A DNA stretch of 64,000 bases from Candidatus Curtissbacteria bacterium (GTDB lineage Bacteria; Patescibacteriota; Microgenomatia; Curtissbacterales; GWA2-41-24). Position numbers and translations under genes: made by a program. A model generated the notes under the pieces. The model did no database searches. It was not told the origin of the DNA and saw only the letters and a list, made by a program, of their open reading frames with translations. Below, in pieces: positions 1,713 through 57,360 of the stretch (the first letter of the stretch is position 1; each line of letters begins with the position of its first letter). The stretch is taken from the NCBI GenBank assembly GCA_024654445.1, contig JANLHP010000026.1, positions 16,733 through 80,732 on the forward strand. Reading direction: 5' to 3'.

Positions 1713-4700
1713 ATGATTAGCATTGTCGTACCTACGTACAACGAAAAATCGAATATAAAAAAGTTGCTTTCCAGAATCGAGAAGGCCATTCGAAGCCACC
1801 CTGAAGACGTAGATAAATACGAAATTGTAGTAATCGACGATAACTCAAAAGACGGCACTTGGGAAATCTTGCAAAGAGAAAAAAGCTCCAAAATTAAAGT
1901 ATTTAGAAAAGAAGGTAAACAGGGCAAAGCATATTCCCTAGTTGAAGGGTTCAAAAAGAGCTCCGGCAATATCTTGGTAATGATCGACGCGGACCTTCAA
2001 TATCCTCCAGAAGCCATACCCCAAATGTTAAAACTTTTAGATCATTCGGATATCGTAGTCGCTAATCGCGAAACGTACGAACACTCTAGGGTAAGAAAAA
2101 CACTGTCAAGAATTTATAAATACACCTTCGGGAAAATCCTATTTGGCCTAAGTTGCGATGTTCAATCTGGTCTGAAGGCTTTTAAGCGAGAAGTTTATCA
2201 CGCCACTACCCCCAACCCTAAATCTCCATGGTCGTTCGACCTTGAATTCTTGCACAAATCAAAAAACGCCGGCTTCACCATTAAAGGTTATGACATTGTC
2301 TTCGACAACCGAAAAACAGACGATTCAAAAATAGGCGTTCTAAGGGTTGGGACGGAGCTTGCGATCAATGCTCTAGTTTTGAGAACTAAAAACACACACC
2401 CTCTTACCATTCCTCCTAAACATGCGAACACAATGCATGGGGCAGGAGTAGGTTTTAAGTCACGAAAGTATGTGACCCATAGCACCTTGCCTCACTATAA
2501 TTCCGCGCTTCAAGGTTTTGTCCTTTGGCAAAAGCTGTTCATCCTAACCGCTTTTGTCGCTCTTGTTCTAGGCCTTTATCTGTCTTTGCACTTAACGGCC
2601 CTTATCATCATCGGCACACTCAGCGCGATTTACTTCTTAGACGTTCTGTTCAGCCTATTTTTGATAGTAAAGAGTTTACACTTTCCTCCGGAATTAACCA
2701 CAACGTCACAGGAAATAAACTCGTTAAAAAACAAAGATCTTCCAATTTACTCAATCCTTTGTCCTCTTTACAAAGAGGCGAATATCCTCCCTCAATTTTT
2801 GGACGCGATAGCAAATATCGACTGGCCAAAAGAAAAATTAGACGTTTTACTTCTTTTGGAAGAAGACGACCAAGAAACAGTTGAAGCGGTTAAAAAAATG
2901 GATCTGCCAAGTTACATACGTACTGTGGTAGTTCCAGACTCTCAACCTAAAACAAAACCCAAAGCCTGCAACTATGGATTGTCACTAGCAAAAGGAGAAT
3001 ACCTCGTAATTTACGACGCGGAGGACAGACCGGAGCCTTTTCAGCTTAAAAAGGCTTTTATCTCCTTCAAGAAAAACCCAAAAAACATAATTTGCCTGCA
3101 AGCAAAATTAAATTACTACAACCCTCACCAAAATCTTTTAACGAGATTGTTTACAGCCGAATACTCATTGTGGTTCGACGTAATTTTGCCAGGATTGCAA
3201 TCGATCAAAACGACAATTCCACTGGGAGGAACGAGTAATCACTTTAAGACGCCTCTTTTAAAAGAGCTTCACGGATGGGATCCGTTCAATGTAACAGAAG
3301 ACGCAGATCTTGGCGCGAGACTTTTTAAACACGGCTACAAAACCGCGATTATTGATTCGGTAACCCTAGAAGAAGCAAATAGCAGACCTAAAAATTGGTT
3401 GCGACAACGTTCACGTTGGATTAAAGGCTATTTCCAAACATACCTGGTACATATGCGAAACCCAATCGCATTTGTAAAAGAACACAAGTTCCACGCTTTG
3501 ATTTTCCAGTTAATTATTGGCGCACGCATATCGTTTATGCTGATTAACCCTTTCCTCTGGGCGCTGACGATCCTTTACTTCGTTATGAGAGCGCGAGTAG
3601 GGGCTGCCATAGAAGCTCTTTATCCTGCGCCGATTTTCTACATAGCAGTTATTTCTCTCGTTTTTGGAAACTTCATGTACATCTATAACTACATGATAGG
3701 CAGTGCTAAAAGAGGGCACTACGCCATAATAAAATACGTATTTTTGATTCCTGTCTACTGGTTAATGGCATCGGTTGCTTCATTCATCGCCCTTTATCAA
3801 CTTATCGTCAAACCTCACTACTGGGAAAAAACCGTTCACGGCTTCCATCTTGAAAAAGAAAACGATGAAAAATTAAAGCAACAAAAACCAGTAACTGAAC
3901 AAATACAAGCAGAAAAAAAAGAAATATCCAAACGTTTAAAATTCCGGGAACTTATTAAATCTGGAACTTTCTCTGGTGGCCTATTAGTTTCAGGAGCAAT
4001 AGTCGGCAATGTCTTGAATTTTGCATACAACGCGTATCTGGCTAGAACTGTTTCTACCGAAGACTTCGGACTTATAAGTCTTATAGGCAGCTTTCTATTT
4101 TTAACATCAATTCCTCTTAACGCGCTCGCTAGAACTGTATGTCACAAGAGTGCTTTTTACTTAGGCAAACACCAGATTGCCCTTAAAGGTTTCTGGGCCC
4201 ATACCAGAAAAAGAGCCATACTTGTTTCTCTCATCGTTACCACTTTATGGATTGCCCTAACACCTCTTCTTGCGAAGTTTTTTCATTCACCGTCCTATCT
4301 TCCTTTTATTCTATTTGCTCCAGTTTGGATTATAGGTGCGGCATCCGCAGTCGACGGAGGGTTTCTAAGCGGAAATTTGAAGTTTAAAGTTAACTCCTTA
4401 ATACTAGTTACAGACCCCCTCGTTAAACTAATATTAACCTTCGCTTTAATTACCTTAGGGTACCCTCACTTAGTTTATGCCGCAATACCTTTGGCTGTGT
4501 TTGCCTACTTTTTAATAGGATGGTTTTTTGCAAGTTCGATAAAAGAGGAAAGGCCAAACATAATCAGCCATGAGGCAACCCTAAAATTCCCAAGAGGATT
4601 CTTTGTGACATCAATTTTAATGGGTTTCACAACGATTGCCTTTTTGACTTTCGATATCATTCTCGCCAAACATTTTTTGGCTCCCGTGCTTGCCGGACAG

Positions 4701-6359
4701 TACGCGCTTATGGCGCTTTTTGGCAAAATGATTTATTTCGTAGGGAATCTTTTTAATCAGTTTATAAACCCCCTTGTTTCAAGAGAAGAAGGTGCAAGCA
4801 GAGACAGTAAAAAGGTATTTTATAAACTTTTTCTTGGATCGACCCTTGCAGGATTAGCAGCCTACATAGGTGTTGGAGTCTTAGGATTTATTACGGCGCC
4901 ACTTTTACTAGGAGAAAAAGCGCACGCAATAACTCATCTTCTGCCAGCTTATGGCATTGGAATGCTTGCTTTCTCTATTTCAACAAGTATCGTCACTTTC
5001 TATCAAATAAGAAAAAACTACATATTCGCTTACACCAGCATACTTTTGGCCTTTATCCAAATTGCCGGAATATATCTATTCCACGATTCGCTGGAACAGA
5101 TGGTTTCGGTGATGGCATTTATTGGCGGGCTCAACCTTGGAGCAATGCTGCTTTTACACTTTGCATATAAGCCATTTGCAGCAATTGTAAACAATCTTAA
5201 AAATCTCAAGAACACCCTTTCTCTCCAGAGAGAAGAATCCGAATCGGATGAGGGCAAACGCATTCTCATATTCAATTGGAGAGACACAAAACATGTTTGG
5301 GCCGGTGGAGCCGAAGTTTACGTACACGAATTATCAAAAAAAATGATCGAAAAAGGCTATCACGTCACCGTATTTTGCAGTAATGACCGCAAGTCGACTG
5401 CCAACGAATTTGTTGATGGAGTTGAAATCATTAGGCGAGGAGGCCACTATACTCTGTACATCTGGGCCTTTTTCTATTACATCACTAAACTTCGTGGAAA
5501 ATACGATCTTATCATCGACTCAGAAAACGGTATCCCATTCTTCACCCCTCTCTACGTAAGAAAGCCTCTAATCGGTCTCATTCACCATGTTCATCTAAAA
5601 GAAGTTTTCGACAGACATCTTCCATGGCCCTTGGCCAAACTGGCTCACTTTTTAGAATCAAAGGTTATGCCCATTGTTTACAGAAACACACAGATAGTTA
5701 CAGTCTCCAATTCTTCTAAAGAAGAGATAGAAAAACTTGGTTTAGGCAAAAAAATATCAATTGTAGTGATACATCCGGGCGTTGATCTTACCAAATTTAG
5801 AACGATGCAAAAAACCAAAGATCCTTCCATTGTTTACCTCGGAAGACTAAAGCCATACAAGTCTGTGGATAGGTTAATTACTGCTTTCTCCAAAATTTTA
5901 AAAGAGATACCCAATGCGACGCTCACGATTGCTGGCGACGGTGAAAGCAGGAAAGAACTTGAAATCCTGGCCAAGAGTCTTCGAATAGAAAAAGTCGTTA
6001 AATTTGTCGGCAAAGTTTCAGAACAAGCAAAAGTAGAACTTCTTGGAAAAGCTTGGATAGCTGCTCAACCCTCAAAAAGCGAAGGGTGGGGAATCACGGT
6101 AATCGAAGCAAATGCATGCGGAACACCTGTTATCGCATCCGATATTCCTGGGCTTCGAGACTCCGTTAAAAATCCCCACACCGGTTTATTGGTCACCTGG
6201 GACAATCAAGAAAAATGGGCGGAGGCTATGACTAAAGTTATTAAAGACGAACGCCTTAGAAAGGACTTATCAGAGCAATCGCTCGAATGGTCTAAAAACT
6301 TTAACTGGGAGAAAAATGCCGAACAATTAATAAAAGTTGCAAAGTTAAAAAATGAATAA
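1713..6359 (+). CDS. 1548-aa multidomain glycan synthase: Dpm1/GtrB-like GT2, TM linker, processive-type GT2 (DxD, TED, QxxRW), TM bundle, MOP/Wzx-like flippase domain, GT4
   Basis: aa1-230 VVPTYNE...IDDNSKDGT...IDADLQYPPE (polyprenol-P-sugar synthase signature). aa~340-600 YDAEDRPEP, VTEDADLG, QRSRWIKG (QxxRW). aa~740-1180 multi-TM region with Wzx/PST-like N-term (GNVLNFAYNAYLARTVSTEDFG...). aa~1190-1548 GT4 (EGWGITVIEANACGTPVIASDIPGLRDSV). Single uninterrupted ORF. Confidence 0.8.
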   Translation: MISIVVPTYNEKSNIKKLLSRIEKAIRSHPEDVDKYEIVVIDDNSKDGTWEILQREKSSKIKVFRKEGKQGKAYSLVEGFKKSSGNILVMIDADLQYPPEAIPQMLKLLDHSDIVVANRETYEHSRVRKTLSRIYKYTFGKILFGLSCDVQSGLKAFKREVYHATTPNPKSPWSFDLEFLHKSKNAGFTIKGYDIVFDNRKTDDSKIGVLRVGTELAINALVLRTKNTHPLTIPPKHANTMHGAGVGFKSRKYVTHSTLPHYNSALQGFVLWQKLFILTAFVALVLGLYLSLHLTALIIIGTLSAIYFLDVLFSLFLIVKSLHFPPELTTTSQEINSLKNKDLPIYSILCPLYKEANILPQFLDAIANIDWPKEKLDVLLLLEEDDQETVEAVKKMDLPSYIRTVVVPDSQPKTKPKACNYGLSLAKGEYLVIYDAEDRPEPFQLKKAFISFKKNPKNIICLQAKLNYYNPHQNLLTRLFTAEYSLWFDVILPGLQSIKTTIPLGGTSNHFKTPLLKELHGWDPFNVTEDADLGARLFKHGYKTAIIDSVTLEEANSRPKNWLRQRSRWIKGYFQTYLVHMRNPIAFVKEHKFHALIFQLIIGARISFMLINPFLWALTILYFVMRARVGAAIEALYPAPIFYIAVISLVFGNFMYIYNYMIGSAKRGHYAIIKYVFLIPVYWLMASVASFIALYQLIVKPHYWEKTVHGFHLEKENDEKLKQQKPVTEQIQAEKKEISKRLKFRELIKSGTFSGGLLVSGAIVGNVLNFAYNAYLARTVSTEDFGLISLIGSFLFLTSIPLNALARTVCHKSAFYLGKHQIALKGFWAHTRKRAILVSLIVTTLWIALTPLLAKFFHSPSYLPFILFAPVWIIGAASAVDGGFLSGNLKFKVNSLILVTDPLVKLILTFALITLGYPHLVYAAIPLAVFAYFLIGWFFASSIKEERPNIISHEATLKFPRGFFVTSILMGFTTIAFLTFDIILAKHFLAPVLAGQYALMALFGKMIYFVGNLFNQFINPLVSREEGASRDSKKVFYKLFLGSTLAGLAAYIGVGVLGFITAPLLLGEKAHAITHLLPAYGIGMLAFSISTSIVTFYQIRKNYIFAYTSILLAFIQIAGIYLFHDSLEQMVSVMAFIGGLNLGAMLLLHFAYKPFAAIVNNLKNLKNTLSLQREESESDEGKRILIFNWRDTKHVWAGGAEVYVHELSKKMIEKGYHVTVFCSNDRKSTANEFVDGVEIIRRGGHYTLYIWAFFYYITKLRGKYDLIIDSENGIPFFTPLYVRKPLIGLIHHVHLKEVFDRHLPWPLAKLAHFLESKVMPIVYRNTQIVTVSNSSKEEIEKLGLGKKISIVVIHPGVDLTKFRTMQKTKDPSIVYLGRLKPYKSVDRLITAFSKILKEIPNATLTIAGDGESRKELEILAKSLRIEKVVKFVGKVSEQAKVELLGKAWIAAQPSKSEGWGITVIEANACGTPVIASDIPGLRDSVKNPHTGLLVTWDNQEKWAEAMTKVIKDERLRKDLSEQSLEWSKNFNWEKNAEQLIKVAKLKNE

Positions 6360-7962
6360 AACAAATTTGAATATTGTTATTTTTGATTTAGACGATATTA
6401 AAAACCCCCTTCTTGGAGGAGGTCAAGCATGGGCTACTTTTGAAGTCGGAAGACGGTTAGCACAAAACGGTCACAAAGTTACTGTAATCTCTTCAAAATA
6501 CCCAAATTACAAAGACAGAACTCAAGAAGGCATTGACTATAAACATATAGGCATCAATACCAAATTTATAAAGTTAAATAACCTTTTATACCTTTTTGCT
6601 GCACCCCTTTATGCTATGAAGACCAAGGCGGACATAATCGTCGAGTGTTTTACTGCACCAGTATCAACACTTTTTACACCTCTTTTTACCAGAACCCCTG
6701 TTGTCGCTTTGCCCAGTATGTTCAACGCCCATGAATTTACCAAAAAATACCACTTACCTTTTCATCTGGTAGAGAGACTAGGAGCCAGATTCTACAAGTA
6801 TCTCTTGCCATATTCAGAAATTGACAGCTCTAAAATGAAAAAACTTAATCCAGGCATCAACTTTAAAATTGTCCCCCAGGGAGTTGCTAAAGAATACTTT
6901 GCGATCAAACAAAGAAAACCGGAACACATCCTTTTCTTAAGTAGATTAGATATTGAGCAAAAAGGTGTCGACCTTTTGCTGATGGCCTACGCTAAAGTTA
7001 GTTCAAAAATAAAATACCCACTTGTTATAGCTGGCCACGGCCCTGACGAGAAAAAAATTAGAGCCTTAATTAAAAAACTTGGCTTACAAAATAAAGTAAA
7101 AATGGTAGGCGCAGCTTACGGCAAAAAGAAATTCGATTTAATGGCCAAGGCACTCTTCGTAGCTTTCCCATCAAGACATGATGAAATGTGTCTCTGGTCC
7201 CTCGAGGCTCTAGCCGGAGGGTTGCCCCTCGTTGGTTTTAATCTACCGGAATCTAAATGGATGACTAAAGATATATCCCTGAAATCTAAAAGATTCAATG
7301 TGGACGAATACGCGTCCACATTACTCGAAGCGACTGATCCTGGCGTAATTGATCAGATGAGGACAAACGCAAGAACTTTTGCAAGAAAATTTAGCTGGGA
7401 AAAAGTTACAGCAGAATATGAATCGTTTTTTTATCAAATTTTAGAAAACGAGGGAACAGTAAAAGTACCAACACTTATCTCATACGAAAGACATATTCCG
7501 AAGATTTCGGATGAGGGCTTTCTTAGTTTTGCAGAAAGTAAAAAACATATACCTTTTAACATCAAACGCTTCTATTACATCACAGATGTCCAAAGGGGAA
7601 AAATAAGAGGAATGCACGCGCACAGAAAAAACCGTCAATTCGCGTTCTGTATTCAAGGAAAGGTAAAAATGACTCTCGACGACGGGTCAAGAAGAGAAGA
7701 AGTTATTTTGAACAAATCGAACCAGGGGCTTTATCTGGACAAAATGGTCTGGCACGAGATGACGGAATTTGAAAAAGGAACAACACTTTTAGTTATTGCA
7801 TCAGAATATTTTGAAAAAAAAGATTACATCAGAAACTATCAAGAGTTTAAACAGCTGGTTGAAAAGAAACATTTCAACCTCGGCATGGATGTTAGAGAAT
7901 TTGCGTCTTACCTTCTAAAATTACCGCTTGCTGCAAATCCAATCCCTTGGAGGATCAGATAA
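6352..7962 (+). CDS. GT4 glycosyltransferase fused to C-terminal FdtA/WxcM-like cupin domain (dTDP-4-keto-6-deoxyhexose 3,4-ketoisomerase-like)
   Basis: GT4 N-term and C-term motifs (LLGGGQAWATFEVGRRLAQNGHKV; FVAFPSRHDEMCLWSLEALAGGLPLVG). C-terminal ~150 aa: FNIKRFYYITDVQRGKIRGMHAHRKNRQFAFCIQGKVKMTLDDG...LYLDKMVWHEMTEF...LLVIASEYFEKKDYIRNYQEF, matching the FdtA/WxcM pattern. Overlaps upstream gene by 8 nt. Confidence 0.7.
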   Translation: MNKTNLNIVIFDLDDIKNPLLGGGQAWATFEVGRRLAQNGHKVTVISSKYPNYKDRTQEGIDYKHIGINTKFIKLNNLLYLFAAPLYAMKTKADIIVECFTAPVSTLFTPLFTRTPVVALPSMFNAHEFTKKYHLPFHLVERLGARFYKYLLPYSEIDSSKMKKLNPGINFKIVPQGVAKEYFAIKQRKPEHILFLSRLDIEQKGVDLLLMAYAKVSSKIKYPLVIAGHGPDEKKIRALIKKLGLQNKVKMVGAAYGKKKFDLMAKALFVAFPSRHDEMCLWSLEALAGGLPLVGFNLPESKWMTKDISLKSKRFNVDEYASTLLEATDPGVIDQMRTNARTFARKFSWEKVTAEYESFFYQILENEGTVKVPTLISYERHIPKISDEGFLSFAESKKHIPFNIKRFYYITDVQRGKIRGMHAHRKNRQFAFCIQGKVKMTLDDGSRREEVILNKSNQGLYLDKMVWHEMTEFEKGTTLLVIASEYFEKKDYIRNYQEFKQLVEKKHFNLGMDVREFASYLLKLPLAANPIPWRIR

Positions 7963-9059
7963 TGATACACATGACTACTTTCCAGAAAGAATACATCAGT
8001 CTTGAACCTATATTAATGAGTGCGGCCCGGAACACTCTTAAAAGCGGCCGCTACATATTAGGTAAAAATGTTGAAAAGTTTGAAAAGGACTTCGCCAAGT
8101 TCATAGGAACAAAATATTGCGTCGGCGTTGCAAATGGTTTGGAAGCATTACAGATATCTTTGATGGCGCAAGGAATAGGCAAAGAAGACGAAGTTATAAC
8201 AGTTTCAAATACCGCCGTAGCTACTGTCCTCGCGATAACTAACGTTGGCGCGACTCCAGTACTTATCGATATAGATGAGTATTACCACATGGACGTGGAT
8301 CTTTTAGAGAAAACCATCACACGAAAGACGAAAGCCATAATTCCAGTTCATTTATTTGGTCAATTAGCAGACATTGAAACAATCATAAAAATCGCAAAAA
8401 AACACAATTTAAAAGTTGTCGAAGATGCCTGTCAAGCTCACGGTGCCTCTTACAAAAACAAAAAGGCGGGTTCGTTTGGAGATGTTGCAGCTTTCAGTTT
8501 TTATCCAACTAAAAACCTCGGGGCTTACGGAGACGCGGGAGCAATAACAACGAATTCTAAAAAAATATACGAAAAATGCAAAATGATTCGAAATTACGGC
8601 CAAAAAAACAGATACGAGCATAAAATTTTGGGCCTTAATAGCAGACTTGACGAACTTCAAGCAGCATTTCTTATAGAGAAGCTCAAAAAATTAAATGCTT
8701 TGAATAAAAGAAGGACGCAAGTTGCCAAGCTCTATTTTAATCAACTTAAAAATATAAAAGGAGTGACACTCCCGGCAATCAGACAAGATTCTTTCCATTG
8801 TTTTCATCAATTTGTGATAGAAGCTCAAGACCGCAAAAATCTTATCGACTTTCTAAAAAGTAGAGGCGTGGAAACCTTAATACATTATCCAATTCCGGTA
8901 CATAAACAAAAATCATATAAGAATTACAACGGAATAAATCTTCCAAAAACTGAAAAAGCCGTAAAGAAAATTTTGTCTTTACCAATTAGTCCCTTTATGG
9001 CTGACAAAGAAGTCATAAAAGTATGCACTGAAATCAAAAACTTTTACAGATCAAAATGA
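7962..9059 (+). CDS. DegT/DnrJ/EryC1/StrS-family PLP-dependent nucleotide-sugar aminotransferase (FdtB-like)
   Basis: FSFYPTKNLGAYGDAGAITTN and ...NSRLDELQAAFL. GGAGG 8 nt upstream of ATG at 7962, which overlaps the upstream TAA (TAATG). The ORF-track start at 7947 is a TTG. Confidence 0.8.
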   Translation: MIHMTTFQKEYISLEPILMSAARNTLKSGRYILGKNVEKFEKDFAKFIGTKYCVGVANGLEALQISLMAQGIGKEDEVITVSNTAVATVLAITNVGATPVLIDIDEYYHMDVDLLEKTITRKTKAIIPVHLFGQLADIETIIKIAKKHNLKVVEDACQAHGASYKNKKAGSFGDVAAFSFYPTKNLGAYGDAGAITTNSKKIYEKCKMIRNYGQKNRYEHKILGLNSRLDELQAAFLIEKLKKLNALNKRRTQVAKLYFNQLKNIKGVTLPAIRQDSFHCFHQFVIEAQDRKNLIDFLKSRGVETLIHYPIPVHKQKSYKNYNGINLPKTEKAVKKILSLPISPFMADKEVIKVCTEIKNFYRSK

Positions 9060-49127: not shown

Positions 49128-49197
49128 AATAACTTAATCTAAGTCTAGAAGAGGCTGCTACGTAGTGTCAATATTGGCAAAGAGGAGCGAGTAAGGT

Positions 49198-49902: not shown

Positions 49903-50796
49903 ATGAAGGTATCGATAGTTGTTCTAAACTATAACGGACTTGCAAATACTCTCGAGTGTATAGAGTCCCTTAAAAAGCAAGATTTTACTGGGAACGACGT
50001 TGAAATAATAGTCGTAGATAATGGGTCAGAAGACGGTTCAAAAGAAGAACTGCCGAAACTCAAGGGAATTAAACTTTTATTTAATGAAAAAAATCTTGGC
50101 TACACTGGGGGAAACAACAAAGGAATAAGAGATGCACTTAAAGGAGGATCAGAAGCGATACTAGTTTTGAACAACGATACGGTTGTAGATCCTCTGCTTA
50201 TCAAAACCTTAATAAAGGCAACCGTCTTTGGTGATGTCATCACCCCTAAAATATATTTTGAAAAAGGTTTCGAATTTCACAAAAATAAATATAAGAAGGA
50301 TGATCTTGGTCATGTAATATGGCATGCGGGAGCCCACATTGACTGGGAAAATATTCTCGGCGTCCACGATGACGTAGATGAGGTAGACCATGGACAATTT
50401 ACAAAAAAGAAAGAGATAGATTTTGCAACAGGGGCCGCGATGTTTGTCAAAAGGGAAGTGTTTGAAAAGGTTGGACTTTTTGATAATAAATACTTCCTTT
50501 ATTTAGAAGATATGGATTTTAGCGTACGCGCTAAGAAAAATGGTTTTAAAATTATCTTCGAACCAAGAGCCATCTTGTGGCACAAAAATGCCGGATCGAC
50601 TGGCGGTTCAGGTTCAAAGCTCCAAGATTATTACATAACAAGAAACAGGTTGTTATTTTCAACAAAATACGCAAAACTTAGAACTAAGATTGCAGTCCTA
50701 AGGCAAATTGTAAGTCAATCAAAAGACCCGATAAAAAGGAAAGCGTTAATGGATTTTTTAACTTTCAAATTTGGAAAGGCGTCTGTTAAATTTTGA
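49903..50796 (+). CDS. GT2 glycosyltransferase
   Basis: MKVSIVVLNYNGLANTLECIESLKKQ...VVDNGSEDGS...NNDTV...YLEDMDF. Confidence 0.75.
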   Translation: MKVSIVVLNYNGLANTLECIESLKKQDFTGNDVEIIVVDNGSEDGSKEELPKLKGIKLLFNEKNLGYTGGNNKGIRDALKGGSEAILVLNNDTVVDPLLIKTLIKATVFGDVITPKIYFEKGFEFHKNKYKKDDLGHVIWHAGAHIDWENILGVHDDVDEVDHGQFTKKKEIDFATGAAMFVKREVFEKVGLFDNKYFLYLEDMDFSVRAKKNGFKIIFEPRAILWHKNAGSTGGSGSKLQDYYITRNRLLFSTKYAKLRTKIAVLRQIVSQSKDPIKRKALMDFLTFKFGKASVKF

Positions 50797-51578
50797 TGAA
50801 AATATCGGCACTCATTCTCGCAAAAAACGAAGAAGAAATGATCGAGGATGCTCTTTCGCAGCTTAATTTCGTCGACGAGATTATAGTCTTAAGTCAAAAC
50901 TCGTATGATAACACAAAAAAAATCGCCCTAAGGTACACTGACAAAGTTTTCGAAACTAAAGTTGAAGACTTTTCGAAAAATAGGAATTTTTTAGCAGAAA
51001 AAGCTAGCGGGGACTGGTTGTTGTATGTAGATGCAGATGAAAGGTTCGATGCAAAAAATAAAGAAGAGATAAAAAAGGCACTTGCCCAAAACGAAAGTTT
51101 CAAAGCATATTATTTTCCAAGAAAAAATATGGTCTTGGGCACGTGGGTCAAGCACGCTAATTGGTGGCCTGATTATGTGCCAAGATTGATAAAAAAAGAA
51201 AACCTAGTTACTTGGAGGGGAAGAGTTCATGAAAGCCCAGAAATAGAAGGAGACTTTGGATACCTTAAAAACCCTATAACTCATCTTACCGCAAGAAATA
51301 TGACCCTAATGCTTGAAAAAAGCATCAGATGGGCAAAAATAGAAGCACAGCTTTATAATAAGGCAAGCAACCCAAGGGTTACACAAGCAAGAATAATACG
51401 CTTCTGCCTATTTAAGTTTTTACATAGATATTTTTATAAGCTTGAGATACTTGATGGAAGAGTTGGACTAATTTCAGCCATTTATCAAGCGCTACACGAT
51501 GCTATGACGTTGACATATCTGTGGGAAATTCAAAACGATACCCAACATAAGTTCGAAAAAGCAGTAAAGTCCATTTAA
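50793..51578 (+). CDS. GT2 glycosyltransferase
   Basis: ISALILAKNEEEMIEDAL...YVDADERF. ATGA overlap with upstream gene. Confidence 0.65.
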   Translation: MMKISALILAKNEEEMIEDALSQLNFVDEIIVLSQNSYDNTKKIALRYTDKVFETKVEDFSKNRNFLAEKASGDWLLYVDADERFDAKNKEEIKKALAQNESFKAYYFPRKNMVLGTWVKHANWWPDYVPRLIKKENLVTWRGRVHESPEIEGDFGYLKNPITHLTARNMTLMLEKSIRWAKIEAQLYNKASNPRVTQARIIRFCLFKFLHRYFYKLEILDGRVGLISAIYQALHDAMTLTYLWEIQNDTQHKFEKAVKSI

Positions 51579-51579
51579 A

Positions 51580-52257
51580 ATGAACAAAAACTTTTTACCT
51601 TACGATGTTTATGAAAGGCACCGAAAAATTGGGTCTCTCATCAAAAAAGATGATAGCGTACTTGATGTCGGCGGAGAACTCGATCATCTATCTCAATTTT
51701 GTAATCCTAAAAAATTAGTTGTCGCGAACTTAACACCAGCGGATGTTGTAATTAAAAAAGGAAAACTTCCATTTAAAAACAATTCGTTTACCACGGTGAC
51801 CGCAATAGATGTTCTTGAGCACATCGCCAAAGAAGAAAGAGAAGGCTTTATGGAAGAGTTAACAAGAGTCGCGAAAAACAGAGTCATAATTTCCTTTCCA
51901 GTAGGAACAAGTTGTCACAAAGAGTATGAGTCTAAAGTTCAAAAATGGCTGACTGATAGGGGGCACGACGTGACCTATCTCAAGGAACATATCAAATACG
52001 GTCTTCCCGAAAAAGAGGAAGTGGAAAAGCTTGCGAAAGATTTCGATCACAATCTTAATTTTTCCGGGAACATAACAGTTAACGAATTCCTTTTTAAGCT
52101 TTTTATGTTTGATCCTCATATCAGGTTTATAAGAAGAGCAGTTTATTATCTGAAATTACTTTTTAACCTAGTGACGAACAATATTTTTTATCTGATTCTT
52201 TCAGACAGCGATTATTCCAACAACGTAATCAGAGCATATTTAATAATCAAAAAATGA
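51580..52257 (+). CDS. class I SAM-dependent methyltransferase
   Basis: VLDVGGELDHL (motif I), AIDVLEHI (post-II). Confidence 0.55.
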   Translation: MNKNFLPYDVYERHRKIGSLIKKDDSVLDVGGELDHLSQFCNPKKLVVANLTPADVVIKKGKLPFKNNSFTTVTAIDVLEHIAKEEREGFMEELTRVAKNRVIISFPVGTSCHKEYESKVQKWLTDRGHDVTYLKEHIKYGLPEKEEVEKLAKDFDHNLNFSGNITVNEFLFKLFMFDPHIRFIRRAVYYLKLLFNLVTNNIFYLILSDSDYSNNVIRAYLIIKK

Positions 52258-53303
52258 AATTTGGATTTTTCAGCCCATATTTAAATACCTTTGGAGGAGG
52301 CGAAAGATATATGCTAACGCTCGCGTCACACCTTTCAAATGGTCATCAAGTGGATATCTTTTGGAACGAGCCCGAACTAAAAGCTCCTATTGCACGTTTT
52401 CTAAAAATAGACTTGTCAAAAACAAAATTCGTAGATAACATTTTTAAACATAAATTCTTAAAAAAATCTTTCGAGTCCATGGGGTACAACATGATCTTTG
52501 TTTTGTCCGATGGAAGCGTTCCCTCAACATTTGCTGCCAAGAACATATTACACTTTCAAGTCCCTTTTAAATTTCCCCCTGCTAATGTGAAGACTAGGCT
52601 TAAGCTAAGAAAATATAAATATGTAGTTTGCAACTCCAAATTTACGAAAAGTTACATCGATAAAAGTTTCAGCATAAAATCAAGAGTGATATATCCTCCT
52701 GTCGATATTGATTCAATTAAACCAGGAAACAAAGAAAAACTGATTATCTCAGTCGGAAGATTTAGCCCTCATCAGCTTCACCCCAAGAAACAAGAAGTTC
52801 TAATAGAAGTATTCAAAGAAGTATATAAAAAATTTCCTCAGTGGCGATTAGTCCTGGCAGGGCAAGCGAAAAAAGGTGACGAAAAATATCTCAGGAATCT
52901 GAAAAAATCTGTCCGAGGGTTCGGTATAAAAATAGAGGACAACATGAAGGTGGAAGATTTAAGAAACCTTTATGGGAAAGCTTCTATTTATTGGCACGCG
53001 ACAGGGTTTGGGGAAGACGAAGTAAAAAATCCCGAAAGGATGGAGCACTTCGGCATATCGACGGTAGAAGCACAGGCAGGAGGAGCAGTGCCGGTTGTAA
53101 TCGGAAAAGGCGGTCAAAAGGAAATTGTTGAAGATAGAAAAACCGGAAGACTTTGGACAACAAAATCCGAACTCTATGATGCAACTATTGACCTCATTAA
53201 AGGAGACGAAGAAAGGGAAAAGCTATCAAAAGCTGCAATCAAAAATAGCAAGAGATTTAGTCATCAAGTATTCTTTAATGAATATGAGAAAATTATTTTT
53301 TAA
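52254..53303 (+). CDS. GT4 glycosyltransferase
   Basis: FGISTVEAQAGGAVPVVIGKGGQKEIVEDRKTGRLW. ATGA overlap with upstream gene. Confidence 0.75.
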   Translation: MKFGFFSPYLNTFGGGERYMLTLASHLSNGHQVDIFWNEPELKAPIARFLKIDLSKTKFVDNIFKHKFLKKSFESMGYNMIFVLSDGSVPSTFAAKNILHFQVPFKFPPANVKTRLKLRKYKYVVCNSKFTKSYIDKSFSIKSRVIYPPVDIDSIKPGNKEKLIISVGRFSPHQLHPKKQEVLIEVFKEVYKKFPQWRLVLAGQAKKGDEKYLRNLKKSVRGFGIKIEDNMKVEDLRNLYGKASIYWHATGFGEDEVKNPERMEHFGISTVEAQAGGAVPVVIGKGGQKEIVEDRKTGRLWTTKSELYDATIDLIKGDEEREKLSKAAIKNSKRFSHQVFFNEYEKIIF

Positions 53304-55620
53304 AATTTCGCCCGCTTTTCTTTTCACAGTATTACTTGTATTTTTATTCTTTTTGCCCAATCTTTTAAATGGAAAATTTCCAATGCCCTCAGACAGCCTT
53401 CTTGGTCTTTATCATCCTTGGCGCGACAATTCCTTTGAAGGATTCATGCCTGGCAAGTTTCCGACAAAAAATCCACTCATAACAGATCCAATTTTGCAAA
53501 CATATCCATGGAAGCTACAATCCGTTGAATCGTTTAAAAATAAACTCGCCCCCCTGTGGAACCCATATAGTTTTGCCGGGCAGCCTTTACTTTCAAATGT
53601 TCAATCTGCCCCCTTCCAAATATTTAACATCACTTTTTTTGCTCTTCCTTTTAACGTCGCTTGGGGAGTAAATATTATTTTGCCCCTACTCGCGACGGGT
53701 GGCTTTATGTTTTTTCTTCTAAAAAACTTAGGCTTGTCCAGCGCCGCGTCTGCATTTGGCGCCTTCATTCTCCCCTTTACAGGCTTTTACGTCGCCTGGA
53801 TGACGTGGGGAACAGTCACAACAACGGCCGTGTGGCTGCCTCTCATTCTGTTATGCATATCCAAAATCACCAAAAAAATCTCTGCAGGGTTTTTTTTACT
53901 GCTTACGATTGCAGTTTCGCAAACAATTCTTTCCGGCCACCCTCAAACCGCATTTTATTCGTTAGTTGCATCTGCTTTGTTTTTAATTTTCACTCAAGTT
54001 CAGAAGAAAAACTTCCCTTCTGCAGCCATCATCACGTTCGCGATAATACTTGGCTGTCTCATTTCATCTGTCCAAGTCCTTCCTGCGATTGAATTTTCCA
54101 ATCTTTCGGCAAGAAATACGGACCAAGGATATTACCAAGGCAGAGAAGACTGGTTCATTCCCCCCAAACACCTCATCCAGTTACTTGCACCTGATTATTT
54201 CGGCAATCCTGCCACATATAACTACTGGGGAGTCTGGAATTACGCCGAATTTGTAAGCTTTATTGGAATTATGCCCCTTTCGTTTGCGCTCCTTGCAATG
54301 GCGAGCAAGAAAAACCATGACAAGAAATACTTTTTCATAACCCTCGTTGCAATCTCACTGCTATTTGGTTTACAAAACCCCATATCCAAAATTATCTATC
54401 AGCAAAACATTCCATTTATTTCATCATTTCAACCCTCAAGGATCATATTTTTGCTAGTGTTTGCCCTTTCTGCTCTTACAGCCTTTGGCTTAGATTATTT
54501 TTTGAAGGGAAAACCCAAGAAAATATTACTGGTGTCACCCCTATCAATCTTCCTAGTGTTGCTTACAGTTTTCGCCTTCACTTATTTGAATCCAGAAATT
54601 TTTCCCAAAGCAGGCAATATAGATGCTTATCGGGTAGCGATCAGAAATCTCATTCTTCCTCTCGCGACTGTATTAGTAGTTATGGCTATATTTACCTTAA
54701 GGATTTACAAATTTTCATCGTACTTTCTTATTGCTGCTATTTTTACAGTCTCGGCATTCGAGCTGTTTAGATTCGCAGATAAATTTACACCCTATTCAAA
54801 AACCTCATGGATTTTTCCTGAGACGGCAACGACTAGTTTTCTTAAAGCCCAGGAAAAGCCATTTAGAGTAATGACAACAGATAGCCGCATAATGCCCCCA
54901 AACACATCAAGTGTTTATCGAATCGAATCAATAAATGGATACGACCCTCTTTATCTTGCGGACTATGCAAAATTTATTACAGTTCTTGAATCACACAACC
55001 CACATCAGGAAGCAGGATCGTTTAATAGAATTATTACACCTCAAAATTACAAATCACCCTTAGTAAATCTTCTGAACGTAAAGTACATTTTGAGTTTCAG
55101 CGAAATTAAAAATGAAAACTTCGAAAAAGTTTTTGAAGAAGGCGAAACGAAGGTATTCAAAAACAACGGTAGCATGCCAAGGGCATTTTTTGTGGATGAG
55201 GTGATTAAGGCAAATTCAAAAGAGGACGAATATTCGAAATTACTTGATAACAACTTCGATTTCAGCAAAACCGCAACTTCACGAGAAATGTCACTTCCAG
55301 AAAATGGAGGAGACAAATCACTATCGATAGAATCCTATAGAGACCAGTTTGTGTCACTCAAAACAAAAACTTCACAAGATTCGGCTCTGGTTCTAACAAA
55401 CGTTTATTATCCAGGATGGAAAGTATACATTGACGAAAAGGAAACAAAAATTTACCCTGCCGATTCTATCTTTCAAATGGTCCTCGTTGCCAGAGGGGAA
55501 CACGCTATCCATTTCAAATATCAACCCAAAACCTTTTATAATGGTCTAGCCCTAACGGCAGGCGGAACATTTATTACGATCGTTATGTTTTCACTTCTAT
55601 GGCTCAAAAAATATCGATAG
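53278..55620 (+). CDS. YfhO-like large membrane protein (GT-C-type extracytoplasmic glycosyltransferase family)
   Basis: Start ATG at 53278 (MNMRKLFF...) overlaps the GT4 3' end. ~14 TM helices then a C-terminal ~300-aa soluble domain, ~780 aa in total. Confidence 0.55.
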   Translation: MNMRKLFFKISPAFLFTVLLVFLFFLPNLLNGKFPMPSDSLLGLYHPWRDNSFEGFMPGKFPTKNPLITDPILQTYPWKLQSVESFKNKLAPLWNPYSFAGQPLLSNVQSAPFQIFNITFFALPFNVAWGVNIILPLLATGGFMFFLLKNLGLSSAASAFGAFILPFTGFYVAWMTWGTVTTTAVWLPLILLCISKITKKISAGFFLLLTIAVSQTILSGHPQTAFYSLVASALFLIFTQVQKKNFPSAAIITFAIILGCLISSVQVLPAIEFSNLSARNTDQGYYQGREDWFIPPKHLIQLLAPDYFGNPATYNYWGVWNYAEFVSFIGIMPLSFALLAMASKKNHDKKYFFITLVAISLLFGLQNPISKIIYQQNIPFISSFQPSRIIFLLVFALSALTAFGLDYFLKGKPKKILLVSPLSIFLVLLTVFAFTYLNPEIFPKAGNIDAYRVAIRNLILPLATVLVVMAIFTLRIYKFSSYFLIAAIFTVSAFELFRFADKFTPYSKTSWIFPETATTSFLKAQEKPFRVMTTDSRIMPPNTSSVYRIESINGYDPLYLADYAKFITVLESHNPHQEAGSFNRIITPQNYKSPLVNLLNVKYILSFSEIKNENFEKVFEEGETKVFKNNGSMPRAFFVDEVIKANSKEDEYSKLLDNNFDFSKTATSREMSLPENGGDKSLSIESYRDQFVSLKTKTSQDSALVLTNVYYPGWKVYIDEKETKIYPADSIFQMVLVARGEHAIHFKYQPKTFYNGLALTAGGTFITIVMFSLLWLKKYR

Positions 55621-56603
55621 TAATACCCAACTATAATGGTGAAAACCTGTTGTCAAAAAACCTGCCACAGGTGCTTAAAGCTTGCAAAGGTTGCGAAGTC
55701 ATCGTTGTTGACGACGCGTCTTCTGACAACTCTGTCAAGATTTTAAAAAAAGACTTTAAACAAGTAAAAACCATAATTCACCATAAAAATAGAGGTTTCG
55801 GAAAAACTGTAAACGAGGGTGTCAGTGCAGCATCAGGCGATCTTGTCCTGCTGCTAAATTCAGATGTCGTTCCAAAAGAAGGATTCCTCGACTATGCACG
55901 TGAACATTTTAAGCAAGAAGATATTTTTGCTGTAGGACTCGCGGATTTAAGCCACGAGAATGGAAAAGTTATAACAAGGGGAAAAGGCGGTGCAAGATTC
56001 AGACGGGGATTTTTAGAACACTTTCCTGCAAAGATTGAAGAAGGGGAAACGCTGTGGGTTTCGGGAGGGTCCAGCCTGGTTGACCGAAAGAAATTTAGTG
56101 AGATAGGCGGTTTCGACACAACATTCGCCCCGTTTTATTGGGAGGATATCGACCTAAGCTATAGAGCCAGAAAAAGGGGATACAAATGCATTTTTGAGCC
56201 GAAATCTAAAGTTGACCACTTTCACGAGGAAGGCGCAATCAAAAAACATTACAAAGAATCATTTGTTAAAAAAGCAGCTTACAAAAACCAATTTCTTTTT
56301 GTATGGAAAAACATCGACGATCCAATCTTACTGATAAATCACCTCATATGGCAGCCCTATCATTTTGCAAAAGCATTATTTACATGGGACCTACCTTTCC
56401 TGCTAGGATTTCTCTGGGCTCTCAGACAACTTCCACAACTCATATTTAATGATCAGAAAGACAATAATATAAAACCACGGTCTAAAGGCCGTGCTTCTCT
56501 GATCTTCGCTCAAAATTCGATCCATCCAGAAGATGAAATCCCTGGTTTTTTCGCTCAGAATAAAATATCAGACAGAAATATAATCAAACAATTTGAAAGA
56601 TAA
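55599..56603 (+). CDS. GT2 glycosyltransferase
   Basis: ISIVIPNYNGENLLSKNL...VVDDASSDNS...NSDVV. Confidence 0.7.
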   Translation: MAQKISIVIPNYNGENLLSKNLPQVLKACKGCEVIVVDDASSDNSVKILKKDFKQVKTIIHHKNRGFGKTVNEGVSAASGDLVLLLNSDVVPKEGFLDYAREHFKQEDIFAVGLADLSHENGKVITRGKGGARFRRGFLEHFPAKIEEGETLWVSGGSSLVDRKKFSEIGGFDTTFAPFYWEDIDLSYRARKRGYKCIFEPKSKVDHFHEEGAIKKHYKESFVKKAAYKNQFLFVWKNIDDPILLINHLIWQPYHFAKALFTWDLPFLLGFLWALRQLPQLIFNDQKDNNIKPRSKGRASLIFAQNSIHPEDEIPGFFAQNKISDRNIIKQFER

Positions 56604-57360
56604 CAACGTACTCTGGAACCCTATTAAAAAACCTCACATTATCGTAGTTATGCCCGCGTATAACGCAGAAAAGACTGTTAAGAAAACTTACGAGGACTTG
56701 CCTAAAGATTTAATTAGCGAAGTTATACTTGTAGACGATGCGTCTGGCGACAAAACGGTTGAAAAAGCAAAGGATCTTGGGATAACGGTTTACACCCACA
56801 ACAAAAATAAGGGCTACGGCGGCAACCAAAAAACATGCTACGACGAAGCACTAAAGCGAAATCCCGACGTGATAGTTATGGTTCACCCCGATTACCAGTA
56901 CGACGCAAAGCTTGTTGGAGTAATGTGCGAACCAATTGTTAACGGCAGAACAGACATTATGCTCGGTTCTCGAATTCAAACAAGAAGGCAGGTACTCGCG
57001 GGTGGCATGCCTTTGTGGAAATATTTTGCAAATAGGTTCCTAACTCTAGTTGAAAACTTAGCTATGGGTCTCAATCTATCCGAATATCACACCGGATTCA
57101 GAGCTTTTTCAAGTGACGTTCTAAGAACAATTCCTTATCCCAAATTTTCCGATGATTTTGTTTTTGACCAACAAATACTGATATCCGCACTCTCATACGG
57201 ATATAACATTTCTGATATTCCTGTCCCATGTAAGTATTTTCCGGAAGCATCATCAATCAACTTCAAAAGGTCGAGCCAGTACGGAATACTAACTCTATGG
57301 ACAGTCTTCAGCTATCTTATGCATCAAGCAGGTTTGGTCAAGTTCAAAATATTTAAGTAG
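56593..57360 (+). CDS. polyprenol-phosphate sugar synthase-like GT2 (Dpm1/GtrB/CsbB-like)
   Basis: HIIVVMPAYNAEKTVKKTYEDLP...VDDASGDKT...VHPDYQYDAKL. The ORF-track start at 56593 is a TTG and needs confirmation. Confidence 0.6.
   Translation: MKDNNVLWNPIKKPHIIVVMPAYNAEKTVKKTYEDLPKDLISEVILVDDASGDKTVEKAKDLGITVYTHNKNKGYGGNQKTCYDEALKRNPDVIVMVHPDYQYDAKLVGVMCEPIVNGRTDIMLGSRIQTRRQVLAGGMPLWKYFANRFLTLVENLAMGLNLSEYHTGFRAFSSDVLRTIPYPKFSDDFVFDQQILISALSYGYNISDIPVPCKYFPEASSINFKRSSQYGILTLWTVFSYLMHQAGLVKFKIFK

Follow-up and report, generated by a model that had tools for sequence, protein, structure and literature searches.

Gene content and organization of the locus

The window analyzed here is a 64,000-nt stretch from a metagenome-assembled genome of Candidatus Curtissbacteria (Microgenomates, CPR/Patescibacteria), and the cluster under study is a block of about 55 kb within it (1713–57360; genes are on the plus strand unless indicated). 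The first-pass annotation had recognized this block as rich in lipid-sugar donor synthases and GT-C membrane proteins, which was borne out and extended by Pfam, NCBIfam, phmmer, and fold comparisons. It had also described about 40 consecutive plus-strand genes between 1713 and 47196; the run is indeed unbroken, but it comprises 36 ORFs. Only 802 nt of this region are noncoding. With the longest-ORF starts, it contains ten 4-nt ATGA/TTGA overlaps and four TAAATG abutments, and three extra ATGA overlaps are obtained if the alternative starts at 9982, 14932, and 21737 are used. What had been called a supercluster is three juxtaposed sub-clusters, each conserved separately in relatives: cassette A (1713–22732) and sub-clusters B and C (23154–57360).

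Outside the block, at the left edge, lies the C-terminus of a protein running off the window (1–297), whose translation shows the LGATG motif, hydrophobic stretch, and basic tail of a sortase sorting signal, making it a candidate surface acceptor. A sortase gene (255–824; Pfam Sortase, 80 bits) overlaps it.

Cassette A is headed by a 1,548-aa fusion (1713–6359) with the architecture GT2-GT2-MOP-GT4, as assigned by Pfam, NCBIfam, phmmer, and TM prediction. Its segments are a DPMS/ArnC/GtrB-like GT2 (aa 2–182), a BcsA-like membrane GT2 (aa 344–624), a polytopic MOP (Wzx-like) domain (aa ~757–1148), for which PF01943 or PF13440 is precomputed in many orthologues, and a GT4 (aa 1198–1540). The fusion is Microgenomates-wide, being found full-length, with at least 46% identity, in all but 2 of the 120 Microgenomates clusters listed. 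It is followed by a GT4-FdtA (3,4-ketoisomerase) fusion and a DegT-type sugar aminotransferase (6352–9059; Pfam, NCBIfam), which may form a 3-amino-3,6-dideoxyhexose branch. In the comparison with loci L019 and L020, the ends of the cassette are kept, and the glycosyltransferase-rich middle (9056–18555) varies in content. Here it encodes five paralogous soluble GT2s of ~300 aa (9056, 9934/9982, 14003, 16732, and 17635; Pfam and paralogy), a GT4 (14881), an APH-like/polysaccharide deacetylase (10854), a DRL oxidoreductase (12723), and a hexapeptide acetyltransferase (16054). Two GT-C genes, described below, precede a signal-anchored, clan GH-A-like exported protein (21695–22732), conserved 3′ of the homologue of the second one (20130); among 56 scanned proteins of the 20130 family, 6 carry a GH5, GH113, or Glyco_hydro_cc domain. 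Further GT-C genes are found at the same position in relatives.

Sub-clusters B and C begin with a nucleotide-sugar block (23154–29758) encoding RmlA, RmlB, RmlC-like, RmlD, UDP-Glc dehydrogenase, an SDR dehydratase/reductase, and GDP-mannose 4,6-dehydratase, conserved in eight relatives (L001–L008). Also assigned by Pfam and NCBIfam are an SDR epimerase/dehydratase and an NDP-sugar (UDP-ManNAc-type) dehydrogenase (39590–41862). The PyrB aspartate carbamoyltransferase (32625–33554; TIGR00670, 331.5 bits, above cut-off), conserved in position, is a housekeeping gene embedded in the cluster and outside its machinery. A Wzx/MOP flippase is encoded at 45730–47196 (Polysacc_synt_3, 185 bits; WzxC/TuaB/O-glycosylation flippase models), and a methyltransferase, a GT4, and two soluble GT2s lie at 49903–53303, all but the methyltransferase conserved in L017. 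Altogether, ~13 soluble GT2/GT4 transferases, the Wzx, and the MOP domain of the fusion had gone unnoticed in the first-pass annotation. A 202-aa protein with 4 TM segments (35527–36135) has no family, is absent from relatives, and was assigned no putative role.

Polyprenyl-phosphate-sugar synthases and GT-C proteins

Five Dpm1/GtrB/CsbB-like GT2s had been proposed as donor synthases, namely the fusion N-terminus, 29759, 33577, 41917, and 56593. All match Pfam Glycos_transf_2, and the proposal stood clearly for the first four and moderately for 56593. In phmmer searches against PDB sequences, the P. furiosus Dol-P-Man synthase (5mlz) ranked first among solved relatives, ahead of ArnC and GtrB, with E-values for 5mlz of 5.7e-33 (29759), 4e-25 (fusion N-terminus), 3.2e-20 (41917), 4.4e-16 (33466/33577), and 1.9e-7 (56593). 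As controls, the generic GT2 55599 matched chondroitin synthase first, and the generic GT2 16732 reached 5mlz at 1.4e-7, over 93 residues only; the PDB support for 56593 is therefore no better than that of a control. It is the NCBIfam models AglJ (70 bits), PpgS (55 bits), and Dol-P-hexose transferase (51.5 bits) that point, moderately, to 56593 as a donor synthase. The five paralogous GT2s of cassette A score at most 27 bits for AglJ and Dol-P-hexose transferase, and PpgS matches just one of them (9056, 20.7 bits). The other four proposed synthases are clearly polyprenyl-phosphate-sugar-synthase-like over the catalytic domain. The best scores to the NCBIfam equivalogs (ArnC, PgfS, AglJ, PpgS, and Dol-P-hexose transferase) were 45–76 bits, against cut-offs of 325–529. 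No donor GT2 is an orthologue of a characterized enzyme, and because every equivalog score falls far below its curated cut-off, sugar and acceptor specificity are not assignable.

The donor GT2s differ in their membrane attachment. By Pfam, NCBIfam, and phmmer, 29759–30967 is a full-length archaeal-type enzyme, joining the GT2 to a GtrA/DPMS TM domain (PF04138, 64 bits, 4 TM), and the GT2 of 1713 is membrane-linked through the fusion. The remaining three have no TM segment: the DPMS-like 33577–34332 (the longest ORF starts at 33466, and 33577 is the likely start), the DPMS/GtrB-like 41917–42633, and the AglJ/PpgS/DPMS-like 56593, which follows GT2 55599 in the pair at 55599–57360. A GacJ- or DPM2/3-like partner was not identified for these three. 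The missing TM segments do not exclude membership of the synthase class, since TM-less members are known, such as GacI (PMC8035078) and PpgS, whose model is 226 positions long.

The assignment of nine named polytopic proteins as GT-C-type held in every case (9/9), based on Pfam, NCBIfam, paralogy, family-level matches, and fold. With a tenth at 47211–49127 on the minus strand and an eleventh (63380–64000), the N-terminus of another PTPS_related/YfhO-type GT-C (SHDGETH...QIPPR) running off the right end, the total is at least 11. Hydropathy predicted 7–13 TM segments in all ten complete candidates. Above the Pfam gathering score were 30978–32510 (PMT_2, 54.8 bits), 36136–37836 (PMT_2, 29.4 bits), 44051–45751 (PTPS_related, 26.5 versus 26.4 bits), and the YfhO-family protein 53278–55620 (YfhO, 84 bits; longest ORF from 53125). 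Just below it was 18598–20133 (PMT_2, 25.7 versus 26.1 bits), a GT-C-like protein with 8+ TM segments that also matches the LA_3751/2 family (52.8 bits) and whose positional homologues are 32–34% identical. The five others, with no GT-C Pfam match above cut-off, were reached by different routes. The protein 20130–21740, with positional homologues 63–64% identical, belongs to a large divergent PMT_2-related family, of which 34 of 56 members match PMT_2, in the absence of a direct Pfam match of its own. MptA/MptB-like (GT87-like) is 34319–35530, which carries an SSDIFNY motif (NCBIfam, 35–40 bits), and 37833–39611 is a PTPS_related/YfhO-type paralogue of 44051 (29% identity over 572 aa). Models of the two family-less proteins, 42630–44054 (no Pfam or NCBIfam family; absent from L017) and 47211(−), both showed a GT-C fold. 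The first-loop acidic motif said to be present in most of these proteins was seen in 30978 (GDEGRD), 36136 (SDEAAY), 42630 (QDDW), 44051 (HDDQQ), 37833 (HDGEW), and 20130 (YNDA); QDDW (D32, D33) and D53 are invariant in the families of 42630 and 20130, respectively.

Each donor GT2 had been thought to adjoin a GT-C gene. Repeated synthase and GT-C sets do occur, but direct adjacency was found for only three of the five, a number expected by chance (p = 0.31, permutation test with 10 GT-C genes among the 45 genes of the window). Conserved synteny is better evidence for such sets than adjacency within the window, and the 29759 and 30978 pairing was kept in 8/8 Curtissbacteria loci (L001–L008).

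Priming functions and the STT3-like protein

Consistent with the first-pass annotation, no priming PGT, Wzy, or Wzz was found in the window: its ORFs of at least 100 aa gave no Pfam or NCBIfam match to Bac_transf, Glycos_transf_4, Wzy_C, O-ag_pol_Wzy, EpsG, or Wzz. A lone Wzy_C trace (E 2.4) was seen in the 202-aa protein 35527, and the polytopic proteins left without an assignment turned out to be GT-Cs. An initiating PGT was also absent among the called genes within 10 kb on either side of the homologues on three large contigs (L017, L019, and L020). Of the components of a Wzx/Wzy locus, the window contains Wzx (MOP) proteins, in 45730 and in the fusion, and neither PGT, Wzy, nor Wzz; nor was any enzyme identified in it that would prime the presumed lipid-linked oligosaccharide.

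The tenth GT-C, 47211–49127 (−), not listed in the first-pass annotation, was modelled as a 13-TM GT-C core followed by an AglB/PglB-type globular domain at the C-terminus. Of its top 23 Foldseek matches, 21 are STT3/AglB/PglB (18) or DPY19 (3). We did not assign it as an oligosaccharyltransferase because the WWDYG motif is absent from its sequence and from the consensus of its 45-sequence family, and neither the STT3 Pfam family (PF02516) nor any NCBIfam model matches it. D131, E150, and D226 are conserved acidic residues in the family, as candidate positions only with respect to the catalytic loop. The gene lies tail-to-tail with Wzx 45730. Immediately upstream of it, on the same strand, is the gene for an exported, membrane-anchored cyclophilin PPIase (49198–49797, −), and the two form a pair conserved in L017 and L018.

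Proposed pathway and comparison with known systems

We consider it probable that 1713–57360 is the main envelope-glycan biosynthesis region of this Curtissbacteria genome and encodes a hybrid pathway, a reading that starts from what the analysis established: how the proteins are assigned by family or fold, their topology, the conserved synteny, and a window that lacks PGT, Wzy, and Wzz. Nucleotide sugars would be made first, and we infer their identities as dTDP-Rha (Rml), UDP-GlcA (UGDH), a GDP-6-deoxyhexose (GMD and SDR), a 3-amino-3,6-dideoxyhexose (FdtA and DegT), and an N-acetyl-hexosaminuronic acid (second dehydrogenase). In cassette A, the fusion, the strain-variable soluble GT2/GT4 enzymes, and the modifying enzymes would assemble a lipid-linked glycan at the cytoplasmic face, which the fusion's own MOP domain would flip and the two PMT_2-related GT-Cs and the exported GH-like enzyme would handle outside the membrane. 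In B and C, four further polyprenyl-phosphate-sugar synthases would load single sugars onto polyprenyl phosphate. The transfer of these donors to the outer face may involve the GtrA-type domain of 29759, Wzx 45730, or both; there, at least eight more GT-Cs would use them to elongate or branch a glycan. The STT3-like 47211(−) is the best candidate for the transfer step onto a final acceptor, which may be a protein, a wall polymer, or a lipoglycan; the order of steps and the matching of flippases to donors are likewise presumptive. The underlying mechanism, in which a GT-A acts with a GtrA- or Wzx-type flippase and a GT-C, is known (reviewed in PMC8035078).

The region had been interpreted as a purely extracytoplasmic decoration machine, in which GT2/GT-C sets add side-branch sugars only, to a backbone made elsewhere, as in CsbB/YfhO, GacI-L, and Gtr. 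Systems of this kind are typified by paired GT-A and GT-C enzymes (PMC8035078), and the lack of PGT, Wzy, and Wzz in the window fits them too. However, known modules need no soluble GTs, MOP flippases, or nucleotide-sugar genes, whereas here ~13 soluble GT2/GT4 enzymes and two MOP-type flippases, which imply that a lipid-linked oligosaccharide is assembled in the cytoplasm and then flipped, share one operon-like array with a full nucleotide-sugar set, and eleven GT-Cs are far above the content of any described decoration locus known to us. As worded, the interpretation was not supported, and we regard it as unlikely. Protein glycosylation seems similarly unlikely. Wzx 45730 would flip a lipid-linked oligosaccharide, 47211(−) would transfer it en bloc to proteins of the cell surface, whether a sortase substrate, a pilin, or an S-layer protein, and the PMT_2-type GT-Cs would O-link sugars in the manner of S. 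mutans Pgf or actinobacterial Ppm1/Pmt. The Foldseek matches of 47211(−), its conserved pairing with the cyclophilin and Wzx, the sortase and sorting-signal protein at the left edge, and the rank of PgfS (described in PMC5856776) as best or second-best NCBIfam model for three GT2s all favor it.

A classic Wzx/Wzy or otherwise PGT-initiated O-antigen/capsule-type locus, with PGT, polymerase, and chain-length regulator encoded elsewhere or too divergent, seems very unlikely. In its favor, a Wzx is present, the conserved ends and variable middle of cassette A resemble O-antigen loci, and 18598 is far less conserved (~33%) than its neighbors, as is typical of Wzy genes. Transport or permease functions for the large polytopic proteins, for which polytopic topology alone speaks, were effectively refuted by their GT-C family or fold assignments. 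Quite unlikely, finally, is a Microgenomates surface glycan made with no PGT at all, in which the ~1,550-aa GT2(DPMS-like)-GT2-MOP-GT4 fusion would act as a single-polypeptide assembly line, priming polyprenyl monophosphate, extending, and flipping in an Agl-like manner. In the same scenario, the 47211 family, which pairs with Wzx and the exported cyclophilin, would represent a new class of bacterial oligosaccharyltransferase, with envelope proteins or peptidoglycan as acceptors.

The hybrid pathway shares features with several systems. The Gram-positive three-component transmembrane glycosylation systems include CsbB/GtcA/YfhO, GtlA/GtlB, CsdAB/CD/EF+CflA, and GacI/J/K/L (PMC8035078). As in these, a GT-A polyprenyl-P-sugar synthase is combined with a flippase of GtrA or Wzx type and a GT-C that is of PMT_2 or YfhO type or has no family, in several pairs per genome, with TM-less GT-A variants (GacI) and an association with rhamnose-polysaccharide genes. 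Unlike them, the window packs no fewer than 11 GT-C genes together with 5 donor GT2 genes into 64 kb of a ~1-Mb-class genome, interleaves them with a cytoplasmic assembly line, and gave no backbone-priming enzyme. In Pgf O-glycosylation of Streptococcus mutans (PgfS, PgfM1, PgfE, and PgfM2), the machinery that modifies sortase-anchored adhesins consists of a GtrB-type GT2, an epimerase, and a pair of polytopic membrane GTs (PMC5856776). The genes at 39590–45751 (epimerase, dehydrogenase, GT2, and two GT-Cs) are similar, but the PgfS model scores 70–76 bits here against a cut-off of 500, and the acceptor proteins are putative only.

Archaeal Agl N-glycosylation employs AglJ/AglD Dol-P-hexose synthases, soluble Agl GTs, the MOP-type flippase AglR, AglS, and AglB; with a lipid monophosphate primed by a DPMS-like GT2, as in the Agl logic, a PGT would be unnecessary. 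Among NCBIfam models, 56593 matches AglJ best, 29759 is of the PfDPMS type over its full length, and the C-terminal domain of 47211(−) has an AglB-like fold. In contrast to Agl, 47211(−) has neither WWDYG nor a match to the STT3 Pfam family, all Agl models score far short of their cut-offs, and the envelope is bacterial and sortase-bearing. Assembly of LM/LAM and arabinogalactan in Corynebacteriales involves the GT4s PimA/PimB′, Ppm1, PimE, MptA/MptB, and the Emb/Aft GT-Cs. Membership scores are sub-cut-off here (MptB, 35 bits versus 40), phosphatidylinositol-related genes are absent, and we know of no mycobacterial counterpart of the fusion architecture and MOP flippase. Because the mechanism class is already established in Firmicutes, Actinobacteria, and Archaea, the locus extends it and adds no new principle; it is unusually dense, includes unannotated enzyme families, and also has a cytoplasmic assembly line with two flippases.

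The CPR/Patescibacteria are mostly uncultured episymbionts whose surface presumably mediates host attachment and phage recognition. To our knowledge, their envelope glycans are essentially uncharacterized, and our literature search found no published description of such loci. If the genome is ~1 Mb, as large as the longest contig seen among relatives, the locus accounts for ~5% of it, and the Curtissbacteria lineage invests heavily in lipid-phosphate-sugar/GT-C chemistry. The 47211-type STT3-like GT-C, the 42630-type GT-C, and the GT2-GT2-MOP-GT4 fusion are unannotated families that offer targets for biochemistry and structure determination. Three conserved modules are now defined, and the strain-variable cassette could underlie serotype-like diversity.

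Gene organization and conserved synteny

The source organism is an uncultured Candidatus Curtissbacteria bacterium of the Microgenomates (Patescibacteria/CPR). Two NCBI MAG proteins, P0001 (NUV69_05060) and P0137, match the products of 47211-49127 (minus strand; genes are named by their start coordinate) and 1713-6359, respectively, with 100% identity, and the loci nearest to the 29759 protein are on Curtissbacteria MAG contigs (66-76% identity). All window ORFs of at least 100 aa were scanned with Pfam and selected ORFs with NCBIfam, transmembrane (TM) segments were predicted by hydropathy, and the window proteins were compared all-against-all by BLASTP. From 1713 to 47196, 36 plus-strand ORFs follow one another with 802 nt of non-coding DNA in 45.5 kb; the unbroken dense run described in the first-pass annotation is thus real, while its count of about 40 genes was too high. 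With longest-ORF starts, start and stop codons overlap by 4 nt at ten junctions and abut as TAAATG at four, and the alternative starts 9982, 14932, and 21737 give three extra ATGA overlaps. For the two genes whose longest ORFs begin at 33466 and 53125, the starts given earlier, 33577 and 53278, are also plausible. By far the largest non-coding gap in the array (421 bp, 22733-23153) separates sub-cluster A from RmlA and is probably a promoter or a junction between sub-clusters A and B; Rfam and tRNA scans of the whole window, including this gap, gave no match.

It had also been proposed that each polyprenyl-phosphate-sugar-synthase-like donor GT2 adjoins GT-C genes as a repeated module. Within the window, the pattern does not exceed chance: three of the five donor GT2s do so directly, a value reached in 31% of permutations (non-significant, p = 0.31; 10 GT-C among 45 genes), and adjacency within two genes was also non-significant (p = 0.42). 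Because of these results, adjacency in the window was dropped as an argument and conserved synteny was used instead. Judged from sequence comparison, the region divides into three sub-clusters, A, B, and C.

Sub-cluster A (1713-22732) was compared with L019 (723 kb) and L020 (976 kb), both large contigs from groundwater, in which the order is the same. The 1,548-aa GT2-GT2-MOP-GT4 fusion (1713-6359, plus strand) comes first (56-59% identity), followed by differing soluble GT2/GT4, methyltransferase, deacetylase, and acetyltransferase genes, then by homologues of 18598 (32-34%) and 20130 (63-64%) and, in L020, which extends far enough, by a homologue of 21695 (50%). The ends of cassette A are thus conserved and its middle varies, a pattern like that of O-antigen loci. 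All but two of the 120 listed clusters have the full-length fusion architecture with at least 46% identity; these clusters span Curtiss-, Levy-, Gottesman-, and Beckwithbacteria.

The order of sub-cluster B (23154 to ~37,800) is common to up to eight Curtissbacteria loci, within the reach of each contig: RmlA-D, UGDH, SDR, GMD, 29759, 30978, PyrB, 33577, extra GT-Cs, the 34319 homologue, and a YfhO-type gene. The PyrB gene (32625-33554, plus strand) keeps its position inside the glycan cluster in six Curtissbacteria loci. Its product scores above the cut-off of TIGR00670 (331.5 bits) and is a genuine aspartate carbamoyltransferase, which rules out a sugar carbamoyltransferase. As a dihydroorotase-like amidohydrolase gene (57971-59065, plus strand) flanks the cluster end, pyrimidine-synthesis genes are embedded in a locus that consumes UDP/dTDP-sugars. 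In the 1.08-Mb contig L017, sub-cluster C (37833-57360) is kept, with Wzx and 47211 again tail-to-tail and the cyclophilin gene again upstream of 47211, but 42630 and the methyltransferase are missing.

Donor synthases and GT-C proteins

All five proteins previously named as Dpm1/GtrB/CsbB-like are GT2s. A phmmer search of PDB sequences ranked the P. furiosus dolichol-phosphate mannose synthase 5mlz as the best solved relative of every one, ahead of ArnC and GtrB, with E-values of 5.7e-33 for 29759, 4e-25 for the fusion N-terminus, 3.2e-20 for 41917, 4.4e-16 for 33466/33577, and 1.9e-7 for 56593. From its sequence, 29759, in which a GtrA/DPMS transmembrane domain (64 bits) accompanies the GT2, is classed as a full-length archaeal-type enzyme. 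As controls, 55599 matched chondroitin synthase first and the generic GT2 16732 matched 5mlz at 1.4e-7, over only 93 residues. Because this generic GT2 reaches 5mlz equally (~1e-7), the PDB top match was dropped as a discriminator for 56593. On NCBIfam, 56593 scored 70 bits with AglJ, 55 with PpgS, and 51.5 with Dol-P-hexose transferase. The five paralogous ~300-aa GT2s of the locus scored at most 27 bits on the AglJ and Dol-P-hexose transferase models, PpgS matched only 9056 among them (20.7 bits), and their best model was PgaC for four of the five and EpsD for 16732. These scores set 56593 apart from the generic GT2s at the sequence level. All scores are far under the equivalog cut-offs, so that no sugar specificity can be assigned to the donor GT2s. 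Hydropathy gave 41917 and 56593 no TM segment. For 33466 it gave one peak (residues 176-194), which is within the GT2 catalytic domain and is not convincing; 33577, 41917, and 56593 resemble GacI and PpgS-type enzymes in this respect.

Direct family evidence (Pfam/NCBIfam) was obtained for six GT-Cs, all on the plus strand: 30978 (PMT_2, 54.8 bits), 36136 (PMT_2, 29.4 bits), 53125 (YfhO, 84 bits), 44051 (PTPS_related, 26.5 bits), 18598 (PMT_2, 25.7 bits, just under cut-off; LA_3751 family, 52.8 bits), and 34319 (MptA/MptB models, 35-40 bits). BLASTP pairs 37833, on the same strand, with 44051 as its paralogue (29% identity over 572 aa). No direct Pfam match was found for 20130, whose family comprises 2,332 representatives with E-values of at most 0.001 (exhaustive phmmer) with an invariant first-loop D53; PMT_2 was detected in 34 and PMT in 5 of 56 diverse members scanned. 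At the right end, 63380-64000 (plus strand) encodes the N-terminus of a PTPS_related/YfhO-type GT-C with the SHDGETH...QIPPR motif of 37833 and 44051. It runs off the window, so the GT-C-rich region reaches past the limits first assigned to it. The window holds at least 11 GT-C genes. The family matches, the paralogy to 44051, and the PMT_2 matches of the 20130 family uphold the proposal that the large membrane proteins next to the GT2s are GT-C-like. The alternative named with that proposal, that these polytopic proteins are transporters, is extremely improbable, as the GT-C assignments of the window's membrane proteins exclude it.

In hhalign comparisons of families A1 and A2 with single window GT-Cs, only weak, non-significant matches were obtained (E 0.001-0.9), and a fold search was used instead. 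Among the best 23 Foldseek matches of 47211(-), 21 are STT3/AglB/PglB (18) or DPY19 (3). Neither its sequence nor the consensus of 45 family sequences contains the WWDYG motif, and no STT3 Pfam match was found. A canonical OST is thereby ruled out, and because of these two absences the modelled protein is described as a putative STT3-like GT-C, not an oligosaccharyltransferase. The gene directly upstream and co-oriented (49198-49797, minus strand) encodes a cyclophilin PPIase that is membrane-anchored and has a weakly DUF4245-like N-terminus; the pair is kept in L017 and L018.

Two further observations concern gene calls and fusions. The 42630-44054 product (plus strand) is 100% identical to the public P0121 (NUV69_05045, 90,807-bp contig), which at 399 aa is 75 aa shorter; the public start is probably mis-called, because the shorter protein lacks TM1 and QDDW, the invariant motif of the catalytic loop. 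In P0258, a 20130-family representative of 1,065 aa, about 540 residues precede the 20130-like domain (541-1057), and the protein may be an 18598-like/20130-like fusion linking the two adjacent GT-Cs.

Flippases and soluble glycosyltransferases

As stated in the first-pass annotation, no priming transferase, Wzy, or Wzz was found: among window ORFs of at least 100 aa there was no Pfam match to Bac_transf, Glycos_transf_4, Wzy_C, O-ag_pol_Wzy, EpsG, Wzz, or LCP. A relaxed scan (E up to 10) of unassigned membrane proteins yielded nothing beyond a Wzy_C trace without meaning (E 2.4), in the 202-aa 35527. Likewise, the genes called within 10 kb of the homologues in L017, L019, and L020 include no initiating phosphoglycosyltransferase (PGT). 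Two 4-TM proteins, 35527-36135 (plus strand) and 57361-57936 (minus strand, 191 aa), have no family match; they adjoin TM-less donor GT2s or GT-Cs, and 35527 is absent from relatives. There is no family support for either as a GtrA-, DedA-, or GacJ-type partner or a small flippase.

The annotation's further proposal was an extracytoplasmic decoration machine, but the process encoded here is not purely extracytoplasmic. A Wzx/MOP flippase (45730-47196, plus strand; Polysacc_synt_3, 185 bits) is present, and the polytopic middle of the fusion resembles Polysacc_synt (E 3.7e-4), an MOP identity confirmed by PF01943 or PF13440 precomputed for many fusion orthologues. The locus also has ~13 soluble GT2/GT4 enzymes, among them the five paralogous GT2s (26-34% mutual identity, BLASTP). 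Two flippases and these soluble enzymes imply that a lipid-linked oligosaccharide would be assembled in the cytoplasm and then flipped.

Proposed pathway and acceptor

The mechanism proposed as most likely builds on established knowledge of the families, taken from a review of GT-A/flippase/GT-C glycosylation systems (PMC8035078). It also draws on general background on the LM/LAM and Agl pathways. Nucleotide sugars would be produced locally, and the lipid-linked glycan of cassette A would be built and flipped by the fusion and the variable soluble GTs, then processed outside by two PMT_2-related GT-Cs and a GH-like enzyme. Sub-clusters B and C would supply four further polyprenyl-P-sugar donors, with which at least eight GT-Cs may elongate or branch the glycan at the outer face; for the terminal transfer step, 47211(-) is the leading candidate.

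Two signal-anchored, clan GH-A-like proteins are encoded in the window, one at 21695-22732 (plus strand; GEFGAP motif), syntenic with the 20130-type GT-C, and one at 61960-63342 (minus strand), recognized by its NEVNH...ITETGW motifs. GH5, GH113, or Glyco_hydro_cc domains occur in 6 of the 56 scanned 20130-family members, which suggests a functional link between 20130 and its exported neighbour 21695, and that a 20130-type GT-C and a 21695-type glycanase may form a functional pair.

At the left edge, a partial ORF (1-297, plus strand) ends in ...QVLGATGTAENSLTFGLSSMLIALGIWQTQKSLAKKARV*, a sortase sorting signal with an LxxTG-type motif (LGATG), a hydrophobic segment, and a basic tail, and it overlaps the start of a sortase gene (255-824, plus strand). 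Its product is a possible surface-protein acceptor beside the glycosylation locus. This sortase and LGATG-signal protein, together with the exported cyclophilin paired with 47211, hint at proteins as acceptor; the rhamnose genes hint at a lipoglycan or wall polysaccharide, as does the LM/LAM-like logic.

The mechanism class is already known from Firmicutes three- or multi-component glycosylation, Corynebacteriales Ppm1/GT-C assembly, the archaeal Agl pathway, and S. mutans Pgf. A literature search for CPR glycosylation clusters found no description of such loci. New here are the apparent absence of a priming PGT from the window, two GT-C families for which neither Pfam nor NCBIfam has a model, the packing of at least 11 GT-C and five donor GT2 genes into one 64-kb window, and a GT2-GT2-MOP-GT4 fusion that is Microgenomates-wide.
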